A stretch of DNA of 64,000 bases from Candidatus Omnitrophota bacterium (GTDB taxonomy: Bacteria; Omnitrophota; Gorgyraeia; Gygaellales; JAHJCI01): positions 58 to 64,057 of the forward strand of contig JBDRMR010000001.1 in assembly GCA_043812035.1 (NCBI GenBank), given 5' to 3'. Of the stretch, positions 2,443-51,139 are shown piece by piece. The position numbers were made by a program, and so were the translations under genes. The number at the start of each line of letters is the position of its first letter. Within the stretch, counting starts at the first letter, position 1. The notes below the pieces were generated by a model. That model was not told the DNA's origin. It saw only the letters and a list, made by a program, of their open reading frames with translations, and ran no database searches.

Positions 2443-2475
2443 TTTGCCTCCTCAAATGAGCACATAACCTATGGA

Positions 2476-2600
2476 GGCGATAGCCGACATAAGTTATAAG
2501 TGTGAATTTGACCCTTGACATCTCCGATGTCAAGGGTAAGTTCGGCCATACAACTTATGTTCGCTATCGCTCCATAAGTTGTGGCCTCACTTATTATACT
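2476..2600 (-). promoter_or_regulatory. structured 5' leader element upstream of rpsO (copy 1 of a two-copy conserved element): two hairpins plus a loop segment complementary to the region just 5' of the rpsO SD
   Basis: Hairpin ccttgacat/atgtcaagg (2513-2536). Second stem ggccatacaacttatg/cataagttgtggcc. Near-identical copy at 9412-9533 with compensatory changes. Confidence 0.5.
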
Positions 2601-2621
2601 GCCTAATCGGGTATAAGTCAA
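2593..2621 (-). promoter_or_regulatory. sigma70-like promoter for the rpsO-pnp transcript (-35 TTGACT, 17-nt spacer, -10 TATAAT on minus strand)
   Basis: Plus strand has agtcaa at 2616-2621 and attata at 2593-2598, with exactly 17 nt between them. The predicted TSS falls at the start of the conserved leader element. Confidence 0.45.
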
Positions 2622-3313: not shown

Positions 3314-3390
3314 GATAGCGTTTAGTATTTTCTATACGCTAAACGCTATACGCTCTACGCTAATAAATACACGCTCTACGCTATACGCTA
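3314..3390. repeat. heptamer-based palindromic intergenic element (family B, copy 1)
   Basis: gatagcgtttagta...tatacgctaaacgctatacgctctacgc...acgctctacgctatacgcta. Inverted arms are built of TAGCGTW and ACGCTMT 7-mers. Fills the trpC-trpF spacer. Confidence 0.7.
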
Positions 3391-3393
3391 ACT

Positions 3394-4198: not shown

Positions 4199-5284
4199 CT
4201 ATGGTAAGTTGGAAAATCGGCGCAGTTCGTCCAGTTTCCTCATAGCGCTGCCGGAATCTATGCAATCGGAGGCAACTTTGATTCCTTCACCCAGATTCTT
4301 AGCCCTGTCTCCCAGATAAAGCCCGGCAGCGGCGTTGAGCAATACGATATTCAGCTTTGGCCCTCTATCTTTGCCGGATAAAATATCCGTTAAAATTCGG
4401 GCATTGTCCTGCGGCGTGCCTCCGGTTAAATCTCCGGGCTTAGCCGGTTCAATGCCGAGGCTCTGAGGATTTATTACATAATTCTTGATTTCTCCTCCCT
4501 CGGTCAATTCGTAAATCCTGGTATCTCCGATTGTAGAAATCTCATCCATGCCTAAATTACTCCCGGCATCCAATCCGTATACGACCATCGCCCTGCTCAG
4601 ATTCAGGACCTTTAACACCCTGACCAATCTATGCGTCAATCTTTCGCTGTTAACCCCCAATATCTGGACCGTCTTGATTCCGTTTTTATAGGCGGAAGAA
4701 AAAGCGGGGTTGACCAAAGGACCGAGGATGTTGAATACCGTCGGTGTTCGGATTTGCCGGCGAACTTTCTGGACGTTCTTAAACGCTCCGTGATAAAGCG
4801 GGGCGAAGAAAAAGGCGATATCTATTTCTGCCAGGCAGCGGCTGGCAATTTCTGCCTCCATTGCAATATTAACGCCGAGTTCTTCAAGCACATCCGCGCT
4901 GCCGCATTTAGAGGTTATGGCGCGGTTGCCGTGTTTGGCTACAGCCATACCCGAAGCCGATAGGATAAACATACTCGTTGTGGATACGTTAAACGTCTCT
5001 ATGGCTCCTCCGCCGGTGCCGCAGGTATCCGCCAAAACCTTATCCTTTTTTATGTCCTTTGTTTCGACTTTGCCGGCGATTTGCCTGATTGCGAAGGCAA
5101 AGCTGGCAATCTCCTCGGTTGTCGGACCCTTTGCCTGAAGCGCGACAAGAAATGCAGCTTTTTCAGAATCAGGCGCCTCTTTCGACATAATAACGCTCAT
5201 TGCCGAGGCTGCCTCCTCCATAGACAAATCAATCTTGCGGTTAAGCTTATCGATGTACGGATTTAAATCAGCCTTTTTTTCCAT
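4199..5284 (-). CDS. trpD: anthranilate phosphoribosyltransferase
   Basis: 361 aa. Glycine-rich CGTGGGAIETFNVST motif of TrpD. Confidence 0.9.
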   Translation of the reverse strand: MEKKADLNPYIDKLNRKIDLSMEEAASAMSVIMSKEAPDSEKAAFLVALQAKGPTTEEIASFAFAIRQIAGKVETKDIKKDKVLADTCGTGGGAIETFNVSTTSMFILSASGMAVAKHGNRAITSKCGSADVLEELGVNIAMEAEIASRCLAEIDIAFFFAPLYHGAFKNVQKVRRQIRTPTVFNILGPLVNPAFSSAYKNGIKTVQILGVNSERLTHRLVRVLKVLNLSRAMVVYGLDAGSNLGMDEISTIGDTRIYELTEGGEIKNYVINPQSLGIEPAKPGDLTGGTPQDNARILTDILSGKDRGPKLNIVLLNAAAGLYLGDRAKNLGEGIKVASDCIDSGSAMRKLDELRRFSNLP

Positions 5285-7131: not shown

Positions 7132-7136
7132 TTATT

Positions 7137-7172
7137 ATAGCGTTTAGCGTGTAGCGTATAGCGTTTAGTATT
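7137..7172. repeat. heptamer tandem array, half-element of family B (copy 2, one arm only)
   Basis: tatagcgtttagcgtgtagcgtatagcgtttagtat lies between the murA start and the prmC stop. No obvious complementary arm. Confidence 0.5.
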
Positions 7173-7174
7173 TC

Positions 7175-7963
7175 TTAGTAATTAATACTTGCTACAATAG
7201 CTCTGTCAATATTATTATAATCCTTAACTACCTCGATTACTTCGAATTCAGATGAATTCAATAGCATTCGTATTTGCGCGCATTGATTAAACCCCATCTC
7301 CATAATCAGCAACCCCTTTTTCTTTAAATAAGCCCATGAATCCCGGATAATGCGGCGGTAAAAATCCAATCCGTCGATACCTCCGTCGAGAGCCATGCGG
7401 GGCTCATGGCTTAATTCGAGCTGCAGCTTTTCAATCTGTGCAGATGGGATATAGGGCGGATTGGTTACAATTAGGTCATAGGTGTTAGGTTTTAGGTTAT
7501 GGGGAAATAAATCGCAGTGAATAAAGCTGATTCTCTGCTCGACTTTATTTAAATAAGCATTTGACTTTGCTATATCTAACGCCTTCTCTGAGATATCTGT
7601 GGCGGTAATCCCGGCTTTCGGCAGGAATCCGGCTAAAGAAATAGCGATACATCCCGAACCCGTGCCTATGTCTAATATCTGGCAATCGTCAACTGGCAAC
7701 CGGCGACTATAGCTTAACGCTTTTTCCGCCAGAATTTCCGTCTCCGGCCGCGGTATGAACACATCGGCATTCACTATGAATTCAAATCCCATAAACTCGG
7801 TCTTGCCTAATACGTACTGAAGCGGCTCGCCGTAAAATCTCCTCCTCAAAGCGCAGGCAAGAAACGACGCCTCCTCCCGTTTAAGTGTCCGTCTTCTATT
7901 AAGATGTAATTCCGCGCGGGAACAATTCAGAATTTGCGTAAATAATAATTCCGCTTCAGTCAT
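7175..7963 (-). CDS. prmC: release factor glutamine N5-methyltransferase PrmC (HemK)
   Basis: 262 aa. NPPY motif (VTNPPYIPS). Lies downstream of prfA. Confidence 0.9.
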   Translation of the reverse strand: MTEAELLFTQILNCSRAELHLNRRRTLKREEASFLACALRRRFYGEPLQYVLGKTEFMGFEFIVNADVFIPRPETEILAEKALSYSRRLPVDDCQILDIGTGSGCIAISLAGFLPKAGITATDISEKALDIAKSNAYLNKVEQRISFIHCDLFPHNLKPNTYDLIVTNPPYIPSAQIEKLQLELSHEPRMALDGGIDGLDFYRRIIRDSWAYLKKKGLLIMEMGFNQCAQIRMLLNSSEFEVIEVVKDYNNIDRAIVASINY

Positions 7964-9381: not shown

Positions 9382-9411
9382 TATTTATTCCTCCTTTAAT
9401 GAGCAGATAAT

Positions 9412-9533
9412 CCTTGACATTTTTCTATAATTCATGCGCCGGAAAAATGTCAAGGATAAGTTCGGCCTTACGACTTATGTCCTTCGACTTCGCTCAGGAC
9501 ATAAGTCGTGGCCTCACTTACTGATTCATACTG
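9412..9533 (-). promoter_or_regulatory. structured 5' leader element upstream of rpmE (copy 2 of the conserved element); its 5' end overlaps the rho stop codon
   Basis: ccttgacat-(26-nt loop)-atgtcaagg. Then ggccttacgacttatg...cataagtcgtggcctcactta. Aligns with 2513-2600 with covarying stem positions. Confidence 0.5.
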
Positions 9534-26310: not shown

Positions 26311-26317
26311 AAATTTT

Positions 26318-26385
26318 TAGCGTGCAGCGGATAGCGTACAGCGTTTAGTATTTCCTATACGCTATACGCTATACGCTCTACGCTA
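26318..26385. repeat. heptamer-based palindromic intergenic element (family B, copy 3); overlaps the fhs stop codon
   Basis: tagcgtgcagcggatagcgtacagcgtttagta-tttcc-tatacgctatacgctatacgctctacgcta. The final cta at 26383-26385 is the fhs TAG stop. Confidence 0.7.
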
Positions 26386-28089
26386 AAATAAGCCTGTAAT
26401 CTTTCCGTTTTCGTCAATATCAATCTTCTCTCCGGCAGGATGACTGGGCAAACCGGGCATTGTCCGCATTGACCCGCATAATAAATACAAGAATCCCGCT
26501 CCAACCGAGGCGCGTATATCCCGGATGGGTAAAGTAAACCCTTGAGGACGTCCTTTTATTTTAGGGTCGTGCGAAAGGGAAAGGTGGGTCTTGGCCATAC
26601 ATATAGGCAGTTTATCGTAACCAAACTTCGTATAAAGCCTTATCTTAGCACGAGCGGCTTCTTCATAACGAACAGCTCCTGCGCCATAAATCTTCTTGGC
26701 AATTGTCTCAACCTTTTTTTTGATTGGCCAATTAAGCGAATAGAGAAATTTAAAACTGGATTTCTTCTCGGCAGCGCGCACAACTGCCTTAGCCAGCTCC
26801 TCCCCGCCCTTAGAGCCTCTTGCCCAAACCTCACTGAGAACTGCATCTTCTGCGCCTGCCTCAATGGCCTTTTTACGAATCAGCTCTATCTCTCTTTTTG
26901 TATCGGTAGTGAATTTATTTATCGCCACCACCACAGGCACGCCAAATAGCTTCATATTTTCTATTTGCTTCTCTAGATTAGAACACCCTTGCTCCAGAGC
27001 CTCCAGATTTTCCTGCAGGAGCCTCCGGTCAAGCGGTTTACCAGCAACAACAGTAAACTTGCCCGAATGCATCTTCAGCGCCCGAACAGTGCAAACCAAA
27101 ACCACACAATCAGGCCGAAGGCCGCTTATCCGGCACTTTATGTTAAAGAACTTCTCTGCCCCACAGTCAGCGCCGAAGCCAGACTCAGTAACAACGTACT
27201 CCGAAAGCTTCAAAGCGATTTTATCAGCAAGGATGGAGCTGTTACCGTGGGCGATATTGGCAAATGGACCGGCATGGACAAAACAGGGAGTGTTCTCGAT
27301 AGTCTGCAGCAAATTGGGTTTAAGCGCATCTTTAAGCAAAACCGTCATTGCGCCAGCTACCTTGATATCCTCGGCAGTAACGGGTCTACCGTCTTTTGTG
27401 GTAGCTAACACGATACGGCCAAGGCGCTTACGCAAATCCTCCAGCCCATTGGTCAGGGCAAGTATAGCCATTACCTCGCTGGCCACGGTTATATCAAATC
27501 CGGAATCCCGCGGGAAACCATCCTCTGATCCGCCTAAACCGATCTTTATATTACGCAAAAACCTGTCCGAGACATCAACTACGCGGCGCCAGATTATCGA
27601 GGAGGGGTCTATATTGAGTGGATTTCCCTTTAGGATAGAATTGTCCAAAAATGCCGCGCAGAGATTATGTGCCAGGCCTACTGCATGGACATCGCCGGTA
27701 AGATGCAGGTTGAAATCCTCCATTGGAACGACCTGAGAATAACCTCCACCGGCCGCACCCCCTTTTATCCCGAATACAGGACCCAGTGAGGGCTGACGGA
27801 TACAAACAGTAGTTTGCTTGCCGATCCGGTTCAAAGACATAGCCAGACCAATAGTGGTAACCGTCTTTCCTTCGCCCAAGGGAGTGGGTGTTATTGCGGT
27901 TACATCGATATACTTGTTATTCTTCCTGTCCTTTAAACGTTTTAAAGTTAACAAAGATACCTTTGCCTTATAGTCTCCATAAAGATAGAGTTCTTTCTGC
28001 TTAAGCCCTAAGCTCTTGGCAATTGTCTTTATGGGCACCAAACGTGCGCGTCTGGCGATCTCTAAATCAGTCAGCATTACTACCTCCAC
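26383..28089 (-). CDS. fhs: formate--tetrahydrofolate ligase
   Basis: 568 aa. [16 protein letters not shown]-loop of FTHFS. Confidence 0.95.
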
Positions 28090-29485: not shown

Positions 29486-29584
29486 TAGCGTTCGTTTTAG
29501 CGTTTAGCGGATAGCGTTTAGCGTATATAGGATTTAAAAAATGTTCTGTTTCCACTATACGCTATACGCTCTACGCTATACGCT
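29486..29584. repeat. heptamer-based palindromic intergenic element (family B, copy 4); 3' arm overlaps the last codons and stop of trmD
   Basis: tagcgttcgttttagcgtttagcggatagcgtttagcgtata...ctatacgctatacgctctacgctatacgctat. The trmD TAG stop is at 29576-29578. Confidence 0.7.
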
Positions 29585-30262
29585 ATCTAATAGTTCCGGT
29601 CTTCGCTGCCTTGTGATTTTTATTGCTTGCTTCTTTCTCCAGTCTTCTATCTTTTTGTGATTGCCGGAGAAAAGGATTAACGGCACTCTCATCCCTTTAT
29701 AGTTCGCCGGCCTGGTGTATTGAGGGTATTCTAATAAATTACCTTCAAATGACTCAAAATGCAAGGATTTTTTTTCGCCGAGAACGCCGGGAATCAACCG
29801 AGTCACGCTATCGATTACCACCATCGCCGGAAGCTCTCCGCCGGTGAGGACGTAATCTCCTATCGAAATCTCTTTATCAACCGGATGTCTCCTTACCCGC
29901 TCGTCCACCCCTTCGTAATGCCCGCAAATAAAAATCAGATGCTTGCACCGGGAGAGTTTTTTTGCTGTCTTCTGGTCAAACCTTTCGCCTTGGGGAGAAA
30001 GCAGAATAACCCTTGCCCCGGATTTTGGCTTTTTAGCCAAAATATGCTCAACAGCATTAAATATCGGCTCCGGCCGCATTACCATTCCCGGCCCTCCCCC
30101 GAACGGACGGTCGTCGACCTTGCGGTGCTTATCGGCGGAAAAATCCCTGAGGTTATGTACAAAAATTTTCACCTTGCCCTTTGCCTGCGCCCGCTTAATA
30201 ATCGATTCGTTCAAAATTGGCGCAAACATATTAGGAAAAATTGTGAGGATATCGATACGCAT
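29576..30262 (-). CDS. trmD: tRNA (guanine37-N1)-methyltransferase
   Basis: 228 aa. [14 protein letters not shown]-terminus and the SPOUT fold of TrmD. trmD-rplS order is conserved. Confidence 0.95.
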
Positions 30263-46172: not shown

Positions 46173-46177
46173 AGTTT

Positions 46178-46253
46178 TAGCGTTTAGCGGACAGCGTATA
46201 GCGGATAGTGCGTTTCGATTTTCTATACGCTAACCGCTATACGCTCTACGCTA
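46178..46253. repeat. heptamer-based palindromic intergenic element (family B, copy 5); followed on plus strand by TTTTTT; abuts the GH57 start codon
   Basis: tagcgtttagcggacagcgtatagcggatagtgcgtttcgattttctatacgctaaccgctatacgctctacgcta, then tttttta. This last stretch overlaps the upstream gene stop. Confidence 0.7.
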
Positions 46254-46257
46254 TTTT

Positions 46258-47280
46258 TTATCTGGTTTCCTTTGTCACAATGGGAGTAATGCTTCTTTCT
46301 TGCTCGCCGTCCGAGGAGGTCGCTACAACTGGTATGACTTGTTTTCCATCGGGAAGGAAAAAGCGTAAACTGAAACTTCCGTCCGGCCTCAGGCTTACCG
46401 GCTGGCCGCCGACCGTCACCTTGGCGTCGGACTCGGTCTGACCGTAAACAATTAACTCCGTATTGACCATCAGCCAGAACCCTTTCGCCCTTTCTCTTTT
46501 TCTCACCGGGCTGGCTATTGAAGATACGGCTCCGGAAGCAAATTCCCTTTTTAATCTTTCCTTCCATAATTCTTTTAATTTAAGAGGAGAGCTACCCATT
46601 CCTACGCCCATCCCATAGAGCTTGGCGAACATTTCCTCGGGAATCATCCACTCTTCGTCGGTAATCCATGACGGGCCGTCAAGCGGCGTTGAAACCGTGT
46701 TAGAGCGGACTATGGTTATAAACCTCCCGTCGTTAAGAAACAGTCCCAAATCCACGCACCAGGAGCGACCCGCCCCCTGAGTGTCAATGTACCAGTTATT
46801 CGCTCCGGGGGTAATCTCGATATCGAAACAGCGGTGAGCGTTGCTTCCGTTAAAGATTATCTGGCTTATGTCGTATACCCGTAAAATCTTCTTAAAACCT
46901 CCGGAAACGATGGAAGGGAATTTTTGCTTCAGCCTCTCCCAGGTAGTTTCGGCAACATCCCAGTAAGCGTGAATCCACCACGGGTCGCGCACCTGAAGAA
47001 CAATCCTATCGCGGCTGTACTGCGCCGGCAGCTCGCGAGGCTCCGGATAAACCTTTTTTGCTTCCTCTACTTTTGGCGGAGTATAAAACTTAGATTCGCC
47101 GACGGCAACCTCAATCGGCACCTTCTTTTCGGGAGCTCCTGTCTTTGCAAAAACAGGCTTACGCCTGGTTGCTCTGGATGGCTTTATTCTTGTAACCTCG
47201 GCGTGAATCTTTCTGCTCTTCGACCCTTGGCTCATAACCTTTTTTATTCCTTCTTTGACTCTATGTAAAATTTTTCTCAT
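46258..47280 (-). CDS. hypothetical protein, DUF4912-like (often linked to glycogen/GH57 genes)
   Basis: 340 aa. Basic N-terminus. The RDPWWIHAYWDV motif is reminiscent of DUF4912. Not confirmed. Confidence 0.4.
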   Translation of the reverse strand: MRKILHRVKEGIKKVMSQGSKSRKIHAEVTRIKPSRATRRKPVFAKTGAPEKKVPIEVAVGESKFYTPPKVEEAKKVYPEPRELPAQYSRDRIVLQVRDPWWIHAYWDVAETTWERLKQKFPSIVSGGFKKILRVYDISQIIFNGSNAHRCFDIEITPGANNWYIDTQGAGRSWCVDLGLFLNDGRFITIVRSNTVSTPLDGPSWITDEEWMIPEEMFAKLYGMGVGMGSSPLKLKELWKERLKREFASGAVSSIASPVRKRERAKGFWLMVNTELIVYGQTESDAKVTVGGQPVSLRPDGSFSLRFFLPDGKQVIPVVATSSDGEQERSITPIVTKETR

Positions 47281-48465: not shown

Positions 48466-49893
<1,428 letters not shown>

Positions 49894-49897
49894 TTTT

Positions 49898-51139
49898 TTA
49901 TGTATTCATGGTAAATATCTTTTTCGCGATATCGGGATATCTGGCGATAAATTTTAACTCGTCGTTAACCAGGGGCTTTTGATTATGGACGTTGGCGTAA
50001 CGCACCAATTCCAGAATCTTAACCGCCTCGTCCTCATCCTTGAACTCAACTTCCAATTTTTCAAAGACGTTCCTGAACCCTTTAATTCCGGAATACTCGC
50101 CTGCGGTAATCTTGCGGCCGGTTTCGATTATCTCCGGCTCCCCGCGGCCCAATTCTTCGAAATCGTAAAGCTCGTAATTGCGGCGGTCCTTTAAGGCTCC
50201 GTCGGCGTGAATCCCCGATTCATGAGCAAAGGCATTAGCTCCGACTCCCGGCTGGTTTATCGGTATAGGGACGCCGAACGCATAAGAGGCGTACTGGCAT
50301 ATTTTCCAGGCCATCTTCAGGTTGACCCGCTCATCTAAAGTATATTCCCCTTGTATCCCGCTGGCGTATTTTATCGCCAGAATAACCGCTATTAAGTCGG
50401 CGTTTCCGGCGCGCTCGCCCATTCCGTTAACGCAGGTATTGATGTAAGCATCGACCCCTCCGTCAACCGCTCCCTTTGCGCCCGCAACGGAATTAGCCAC
50501 TACCATGCCCAGGTCGTTATGGCAATGGATCTCTACGGGCAAGCCGACGTTTTGTGCCAGCGATTTTACCCGTTCATAAATCGAGAACGGAGAATCGCAA
50601 CCGAGGGTATCGCAATAACGGATGCGCTCGCCTCCGGCCTTCTTTGCCGCTTTGGCGAATCTTATCAGATAGTCCATATCCGTCCTGGAGGAATCCTCGG
50701 CATTTACCCCGATTGTCTTCGCCCCCAGTTTGCGTGCCAGGCGAACCGCCTGAGTCATCTCCGAAATTACCGATTCGTGGTTCAGTTTGCCTTTAAATTT
50801 GTATTTAATCATCTGGTCCGAAGTAGAAATCGAAAGATTAAGGTGTTTTATTTCGGGAACCAGATTAAAAGCGGCCTCCACGTCCTGAGCGGTCGCGCGC
50901 ATCCAGCCCCCTAAACGGATAGGGCTTAAAACTCCCATTTTAGCCAACTCTAAATTTGCGTTGAGGTAATTTGTCTCATGATAGGTAATCGGAAAACCGA
51001 ATTCCGACTGAAAAACCCCCATCTCGTTAAGATAAATATTAATCATGGTTTTTTCTAACTTTGACAGGCAGATTCGCGAAGTCTGAACTCCGTCGCGATT
51101 GGTCACGTCAATAATGTGAATTTTTGATTTTTTACTCAT
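49898..51139 (-). CDS. LeuA/HMGL-like family synthase, short form (homocitrate/citramalate/2-isopropylmalate synthase-like)
   Basis: 413 aa. DRE-like TIM barrel (VTNRDGVQT) and HxH metal motif (IHCHNDLG). Lacks the LeuA C-terminal regulatory domain. Confidence 0.75.
   Translation of the reverse strand: MSKKSKIHIIDVTNRDGVQTSRICLSKLEKTMINIYLNEMGVFQSEFGFPITYHETNYLNANLELAKMGVLSPIRLGGWMRATAQDVEAAFNLVPEIKHLNLSISTSDQMIKYKFKGKLNHESVISEMTQAVRLARKLGAKTIGVNAEDSSRTDMDYLIRFAKAAKKAGGERIRYCDTLGCDSPFSIYERVKSLAQNVGLPVEIHCHNDLGMVVANSVAGAKGAVDGGVDAYINTCVNGMGERAGNADLIAVILAIKYASGIQGEYTLDERVNLKMAWKICQYASYAFGVPIPINQPGVGANAFAHESGIHADGALKDRRNYELYDFEELGRGEPEIIETGRKITAGEYSGIKGFRNVFEKLEVEFKDEDEAVKILELVRYANVHNQKPLVNDELKFIARYPDIAKKIFTMNT

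Follow-up and report, generated by a model that had tools for sequence, protein, structure and literature searches.

Two copies of a structured sequence lie upstream of ribosomal protein genes in a stretch of 64,000 nucleotides (the window) from a Candidatus Omnitrophota bacterium, which raises the question of whether they are a regulatory RNA shared by these genes or a repeat of another kind. Three possibilities had been named in an earlier note on this DNA, a shared cis-regulatory leader, an RNase processing or stability element, and a small MITE-like structured repeat, and of these it is the last that the evidence favours. Both loci are probably MITE-like, non-autonomous members, lacking an ORF, of a family of compact palindromic mobile elements found throughout Omnitrophota genomes. 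The first 13 kb of the window has genes on the minus strand only (pnp, rpsO, trpF-C-D-G, murA, prmC, prfA, rpmE, rho, coaE, and glgA), and those downstream of the two copies encode S15 (rpsO) and L31 (rpmE).

Both copies are present as first described and are found on the minus strand at 2596-2447 (copy 1, 5' of rpsO) and 9520-9395 (copy 2, 5' of rpmE, in the rho-rpmE spacer). In each, a hairpin of 57-64 nt that has two tandem G·A motifs precedes a CCTTGACAT hairpin. The common anatomy of the long hairpin, termed unit-1, is UAAGU-GA-GGCC-(10-bp stem)-GA-(short stem and loop)-GA(A)-(10-bp stem)-NN-GGCC-GA-ACUUA; 3' of it are a CCUUGACAU...AUGUCAAGG hairpin, termed H2, then UUAU-N-UGCUCAUU-NN-AGGAGG and the start codon. 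The earlier note had overlooked that the similarity runs on to this last motif just 5' of each start codon, that copy 1 has an inverted second hairpin (2453-2510, plus strand), and that the UAA of copy 2 is the stop codon of rho.

Copy 1 is complete. Its unit-1 hairpin (2593-2537, minus strand) reads UAAGU-GA-GGCC-ACAACUUAUG-[GAGCGAUAGCGAA]-CAUAAGUUGU-AU-GGCC-GA-ACUUA, which comprises 5 bp, a tandem G·A, the 4 bp of GGCC, a 2-nt bulge, a 10-bp stem, the other tandem G·A, and an apical GAUA loop. The H2 hairpin (2536-2512, minus strand) has the arms CCCUUGACAU-loop-AUGUCAAGGG in an inverted repeat CCCTTGACAT-ctccg-ATGTCAAGGG. Unit-2, an inverted and diverged unit-1 hairpin, is matched by the covariance model on the plus strand at 2453-2510 (38.6 bits, E 2.3e-6) and its minus-strand sequence is UCAAAUUCACAC-hairpin-GUGCUCAUUUG. 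In the minimum free energy fold it is paired with unit-1, so that the whole 150-nt copy folds as a single hairpin of ~70 bp, and the rpsO ribosome-binding site AGGAGG (2452-2447, minus strand) and start codon (2442-2440) are directly 3' of it. Copy 2 is shorter (~125 nt, compared with ~150 nt for copy 1) and consists of unit-1, H2, and the tail of unit-2 alone. Its unit-1 hairpin (9457-9520, minus strand) resembles that of copy 1 but carries ACGACUUAUG/CAUAAGUCGU, an A·U to G·C compensatory change that bears out the covariation first proposed for the second stem, and its first three bases, UAA (9520-9518), are the rho stop codon. The H2 inverted repeat (9411-9456, minus strand) has the form TCCTTGACATTTTTC-16 nt-GAAAAATGTCAAGGA, and the unit-2 remnant (9395-9410, minus strand) is only the 3' tail UUAUCUGCUCAUUAAA, for which the family consensus is GYGCUCAUUWAA. 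The rpmE Shine-Dalgarno sequence (9394-9390, minus strand) and ATG (9381-9379) follow. Neither copy contains an ORF.

The pattern ACTTATG-N(8-30)-CATAAGT occurs twice in the window, where 0.01 occurrences would be expected by chance. A covariance model (R1) was built on 92 family members, and both window copies were significant in searches with it (copy 1, 82.6 bits, E 2e-16; copy 2, 62.7 bits, E 7e-12). With filters off, no further sense-strand copy was found in the 64-kb window, and many extra copies were found in the loci that had been fetched. Both copies are far more stable than shuffled controls, with fold energies of -74.5 kcal/mol (z -9.8) for copy 1 and -56 kcal/mol (z -7.5) for copy 2.

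A promoter-like TTGACT-17-TATAAT adjoins copy 1 (2593-2621, minus strand), with 11 of 12 positions agreeing with the consensus, a consensus match only, and the first base of the element is the last T of the putative -10 hexamer. Because this match abuts copy 1, the copy probably lies within the rpsO 5' UTR; if the site is used, the rpsO mRNA start would fall inside the basal stem of unit-1. A TATAAT ending on base 1 of unit-1 can also be seen in four copies that do not follow the end of a gene, namely the window copy (2593-2598) and those at loci L033, L079, and L110. The promoter scan called no promoter inside copy 2. An intrinsic terminator was considered and rejected, as the scan placed no terminator-like call on the minus strand at either window element; H2 is followed by UUAAUUCGC or UCAAAUUC, which is not the G+C-rich hairpin with a U tract that such terminators have. 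A promoter or operator function of CCTTGACAT was likewise rejected because TTGACA is just one of several H2 arm types, and it is further weakened in that a suitably spaced -10 is not conserved among the other copies. From the sequence, a kink-turn was also set aside: regular stems flank the tandem G·A on both sides, and the GGCC stem separates it from the 2-nt bulge.

The extent of the family was examined by an exact-pattern scan with TAAGTGAGGCC-N(20-50)-GGCCGAACTTA across one genome per species. At least 117 matching stretches were found, from about 73 assemblies among the matches listed, nearly all of them labelled Candidatus Omnitrophota. Extra copies at the 3' ends of unrelated genes, which according to the earlier note would favour a selfish repeat, are therefore what was found, usually starting on the upstream stop codon. 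Additional diverged copies in the fetched loci suggest a density of ~1 element per 25-30 kb, as in the window. The viral collection contained no match to the hairpin pattern, and a phage origin was rejected on this ground. Searches against Rfam 15 gave no match in the window at gathering threshold and only generic miRNA and snoRNA hairpin matches at E values up to 10; neither Rfam 15 nor the literature searched contains this repeat family or anything similar.

Among 92 distinct hairpins, each of the nine inner-helix pairs shows double compensatory changes, the paired cells amount to 96.9%, and the covariation observed was reached by none of 500 shuffles. In the diverged copies, both outer stems covary (GGGC/GCCC, AGCC/GGCU, UUAGU/ACUAA), and neither of the two tandem G·A motifs varies. 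Orthologous copies at L022 and L147, whose adjacent rho coding sequences are 88% identical, differ at 7 of 58 hairpin positions, and three compensated pairs account for six of the seven changes. Selection or palindrome-templated correction thus maintains the hairpin where it stands; a purely decaying relic would not behave in this way, and this counts against the mobile-element reading. An excess of G·U over A·C, as a strand-specific test for selection on RNA, is weak in unit-1 (11 against 3) and absent from the H2 arms (21 against 16), and was therefore regarded as non-decisive.

The complete element consists of the unit-1 hairpin (~57 nt, in which both tandem G·A motifs are invariant), the H2 inverted repeat, and the inverted, diverged unit-2, which ends at the ribosome-binding site of the next gene. 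Unit-1 starts with UAAGUGAG or NAAAUGAG. H2 starts with YCCC, ends with GGGR, and falls into a small number of arm types that recur, each of them characteristic of certain genomes. After H2, (U)UAAUUCGCRC-hairpin-GYGCUCAUUWAA can be recognised in 60 of the 110 evaluable copies among the matches listed; it is the reverse complement of this stretch that has the unit-1 design, and the covariance model accordingly matches the opposite strand downstream, the two units lying on opposite strands. The tandem G·A of unit-2 is therefore carried by the non-coding strand, and the mRNA there has U·C/C·U mismatches. Together with the lack of a G·U bias in H2, this argues for recognition of the conserved features at the level of DNA and not of mRNA. 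TAA...TAA forms the boundaries of many copies, in which the TAA is part of the terminal stems, covaries with them, and is indistinguishable from a target-site duplication.

Several further features of individual copies were noted. In one assembly, MNVP01, the copies at L016 (~4800-4890) and L083 (~4740-4830) have the same H2 arms with mutually reverse-complementary loops, evidence that the palindrome has been inverted as DNA. At L222 (~341-404) the thrS reading frame continues into unit-1, across its 5' half, and is closed by the UGA in the conserved apical loop GGAACAAAGUGAAC, so that common unit-1 variants offer stop codons in all three frames. A conserved flank ...CCTCYTBCGTCTATT(A) is found directly 5' of unit-1 (20-45 nt upstream) at six loci from different genomes (L027, L041, L082, L106, L108, and L120) and matched no Rfam family.

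The placement of the elements relative to genes is highly regular. Where both neighbours could be called among the matches listed, 74 of 76 copies point the same way as both genes and 2 point the opposite way. Within its first seven bases the element supplies the upstream stop codon, as its UAA (bases 1-3) in 62 of 95 cases and as a UGA (bases 5-7) in 11 of 95, again among the matches listed, and the 3' tail is followed by a Shine-Dalgarno sequence or a start codon within a few nucleotides. The neighbours are unrelated housekeeping genes, with 132 Pfam families in 77 upstream genes and 127 in 83 downstream genes among the matches listed; many sites are junctions in ribosomal protein and other highly expressed operons, and the great majority flank non-ribosomal genes. 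The copy at L119 lies between two tRNA genes, and that at L104 starts directly after one.

Orthologous junctions are variably occupied. The L6-L18 junction is filled in some species and empty (TAAtcATG) in others. For the rho-rpmE junction, 80 metagenomic relatives of L31 were fetched, of which 42 have rho directly upstream. In 16 of these 42 the spacer is an empty 17-40 nt (TAA...SD...ATG), at least 8 contain modules of this family, and several carry unrelated heptamer-array hairpins. Removal of GTGAGG...CTCATTAA from copy 2 leaves TAA-AGGAGGAATAAATAATG, which resembles the empty junctions TAAaggaggagtcagATG and TAAggaggagaaaaATG. As the junction is often empty in relatives, the element is dispensable for rpmE expression, and such presence/absence polymorphism at orthologous sites is one of the criteria by which MITEs are recognised. 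Identical-protein look-ups for rpsO and rpmE returned identical sequences only and carried no comparative information.

A small ORF was found in the H2 loop of three copies (L041, L113, and L171, the last at the rho-rpmE junction). Its product is a GIY-YIG protein of 85-97 aa that resembles UPF0213 and consists of the catalytic domain alone; Pfam PF01541 matches it at 50.7-58.8 bits (cut-off 22.6), and its catalytic residues are invariant (Y, G, R, H/N, E). The closest solved structures are UPF0213 proteins (best 1zg2, E 1.4e-6), and matches to Slx1 are weak. Seven further loci were recovered by protein homology alone, at junctions that include pho4-phoU, dapF-dapA, and thrS-infC. In all 10 Omnitrophota loci examined, at different junctions, the ORF lies inside H2, is bracketed by unit-1 upstream and inverted unit-2 downstream, and is co-oriented with unit-1 and the host genes; this form of the element measures ~450-500 bp.

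The ORF products fall into two subfamilies that are 34% identical and go with two H2 arm types, and the arms of the window copies are of the type found in L171, L222, and L226. The H2 arm type of copy 1 is that which flanks the ORF at these three loci, and the copy 2 arms CCTTGACATTTTTC/GAAAAATGTCAAGG are nearly identical to those around the ORF in L226. The 16-nt H2 loop of copy 2, cggcgcATGAATTata, keeps ATGAATT, which matches the ORF start in L222, and looks like the putative remnant of a deleted GIY-YIG ORF. No GIY-YIG gene was found in the 64-kb window. Each of the identical GIY-YIG proteins that were looked up occurs at a single locus, a pattern that gives no direct sign of a recent multi-copy spread of ORF-carrying elements.

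Outside Omnitrophota, inverted repeat-flanked GIY-YIG ORFs that lack unit-1 and unit-2 are found, for example inside a Parcubacteria 16S rRNA gene. At L212 and L213 (Parcubacteria, ~480-800), the ORF has CCCCGCCCTTTTGG just 5' of its start and ends with ...CGGGGATGA, and a LAGLIDADG ORF is located upstream; at L212 it lies within the 16S rRNA gene, where an Rfam SSU match of 559 bits spans the insertion. At L214 (~430-760), an inverted repeat-flanked GIY-YIG ORF is directly 5' of a GAGGAAAGUCCG-like motif reminiscent of RNase P RNA; an RNase P context for this locus was rejected, as the motif was its sole indication and Rfam gave no confirmation on the short locus.

These unit-less cassettes raise the possibility that the ORF is a separate invader of the repeat. 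The repeat would then be a REP/BIME- or REPIN-like palindrome, spread or maintained by other means, be it recombination, templated repair, or a RAYT-type enzyme that escaped detection, and the GIY-YIG ORF a secondary homing cassette in some H2 hairpins. We consider this explanation rather unlikely. The cassettes in the Parcubacteria 16S rRNA gene and in other contexts speak for it, as do the arrangement of two inverted imperfect palindromes around a linker, typical of BIMEs and REPINs, and the existence of solo unit-1 and solo unit-2 copies (L027, L112, L090, and L143). However, no homologue of the E. coli RayT query was found by phmmer in the 848 kb of element-bearing loci and the window (best E 0.86), so that a RAYT/REP system finds no support in these sequences, and the GTAG-type tetranucleotide that would be expected at the hairpin foot is absent from unit-1 and its flanks. 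A secondary homing cassette also sits poorly with the location of all 10 Omnitrophota ORFs examined in complete elements, and all full-length ORF-less elements keep at least a short H2, as would be expected after loss of the ORF. An RNA-level origin of the pattern, in which the host has selected the element as an intercistronic punctuation module, with a conserved protein binding its G·A motifs or RNase III cleaving it, that sets mRNA 3'/5' end stability, processing, or translation termination and re-initiation in operons, rpsO and rpmE included, appears less probable still. The 97% sense orientation could reflect such a function, and the exact stop-codon-to-RBS placement, the invariance of the tandem G·A between two covarying stems, the compensatory evolution in place between L022 and L147, the frequency of sites in highly expressed operons, and the very stable folds are all compatible with it. 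Against it, orthologous junctions are often empty at 17-40 nt, H2 arm types are genome-specific with one loop inverted, the G·A of unit-2 is antisense, H2 has no excess of G·U over A·C, the window elements received no terminator-like call, and an ORF for a GIY-YIG protein inside the element points to a selfish origin.

The shared cis-regulatory leader named in the earlier note, taken here as an autoregulatory ribosomal protein leader in which an rRNA-mimicking site for S15 or L31 would be common to rpsO and rpmE, is hardly credible. In rRNA, proteins commonly bind at tandem G·A motifs, and both window copies are 5' of ribosomal protein genes. Nevertheless, a single element would have to serve two unrelated proteins, no Rfam leader family was matched even at E values up to 10, relatives express rpmE from an empty junction, and most members of the family flank non-ribosomal genes, with more than 120 Pfam families on each side among the matches listed. 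Of the interpretation given in the earlier note, the structure with its compensatory changes stands and a position of copy 1 in the rpsO 5' UTR is probable, whereas the role as a ribosomal protein leader finds no support.

The mobile-element reading can be put in the form of a mechanism. The window copies would go back to an element of the CCCTTGACAT lineage that carried the ORF and then lost it by deletion, and copy 2 would additionally have lost most of unit-2. The GIY-YIG nuclease would be expressed through read-through from host operons and would cut hairpin or cruciform DNA, or empty sites, whereupon repair would copy the element in. Sense orientation and stop-codon overlap would mark the survivors of selection, in which the nuclease is expressed and the host genes remain intact, and the ORF-less copies would have inherited both properties. 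The genome-specific H2 arm types and the flipped loop appear to point to copying within genomes. The window elements would be transcribed as passengers, copy 1 as a long duplex in a 150-nt rpsO 5' UTR and copy 2 in the rho-rpmE spacer. Any influence on the stability or processing of the mRNA, for example through long duplexes close to ribosome-binding sites or through hairpins that stabilise 5'/3' ends, would be a side effect and not control specific to ribosomal proteins. A further suggestion, offered tentatively and more apt to fail than to hold, is that the family may represent an undescribed class of mobile element, whose sole protein would be a minimal structure-specific GIY-YIG/UPF0213 nuclease (~85-97 aa) acting on cruciform-forming G·A-hairpin ends, with precise stop-codon-to-RBS insertion and expression by host read-through.

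The closest known kinds of element are the REP/BIME/REPIN elements and the bacterial MITEs. As with the REP, BIME, and REPIN elements of E. coli and Pseudomonas and their RAYT enzymes, short imperfect palindromes, often in inverted pairs around a linker, occur in tens of copies per genome at intergenic and intra-operon positions, are co-transcribed with their neighbours, and form genome-specific subfamilies. Unlike those, the present family has neither a detected RAYT nor GTAG, is linked to a GIY-YIG nuclease rather than an HUH-Y1 enzyme, is almost always in sense and overlapping the upstream stop codon, and shares its hairpin design across about 73 Omnitrophota-type genomes among the matches listed rather than within a genus. 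With MITEs such as Correia/NEMIS, ERIC, RUP, and BOX it has in common a non-autonomous, modular unit of 100-200 bp with inverted ends, long hairpins in mRNA, and presence/absence polymorphism; the copies are small and ORF-less with inverted terminal structures, and longer relatives that share both ends encode a predicted nuclease. Known MITEs have parents that encode DDE transposases and whose target duplications are clear, whereas here the ORF-carrying form of ~450-500 bp encodes a GIY-YIG protein and the TAA...TAA ends are inseparable from the terminal stem.

Free-standing GIY-YIG homing endonucleases (the T4 seg genes, I-TevI) and the endonuclease insertions in CPR rRNA genes share with the present ORF the GIY-YIG catalytic domain and sense insertion between or within conserved genes, and in the case of the CPR insertions a related cassette is found inside the Parcubacteria 16S rRNA gene. 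They differ in that here no DNA-binding or NUMOD domain is present, structured inverted repeats flank the ORF, and many different junctions and abundant ORF-less derivatives are seen. UPF0213 (YhbQ-type) proteins and Slx1 have the same catalytic Y, G, R, H, and E, and the best structure match is to one of the former, but they are regarded as host genes, and their embedding in a hairpin-ended repeat is not described in the sources searched. Ribosomal protein leaders, such as the S15 leader of Rfam, are similarly structured and located 5' of rpsO near the ribosome-binding site; the present element, in contrast, has no Rfam match, is not specific to ribosomal protein genes, and is absent from the orthologous junctions of relatives. 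No bacterial IS family that uses a GIY-YIG enzyme was found in the literature searched, and the enzyme class differs from that of all IS transposases found there.

If the GIY-YIG link is causal, the family would be a type of bacterial mobile element with a nuclease fold that no IS transposase is known to have, a GIY-YIG-driven IS/MITE system through which the widespread UPF0213 family would gain a function. Its strict sense, stop-codon-to-RBS placement in essential operons, including those for ribosomal proteins, offers a natural system that could reveal the ways in which compact genomes cope with, and perhaps exploit, structured insertions in polycistronic mRNAs. The results also remove a false lead, as there is no shared S15/L31 regulatory RNA here, and repeats of this sort fragment assemblies of uncultured Omnitrophota and can pass for riboswitch-like RNAs.

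A second class of intergenic repeat can also be seen in the window, in which 7-nt units are arrayed palindromically, (AGCGTNT)n and then (ANACGCT)n, into long hairpins between genes (3317-3391, 7132-7177, 26315-26393, 29495-29593, 46175-46261, and 49740-49901). Analogous arrays of other heptamers (such as CGTAATN, GTAAAGC, and TTCATAG) are found in relatives, at the rho-rpmE junction and elsewhere. These heptamer arrays may be terminators or another repeat family.
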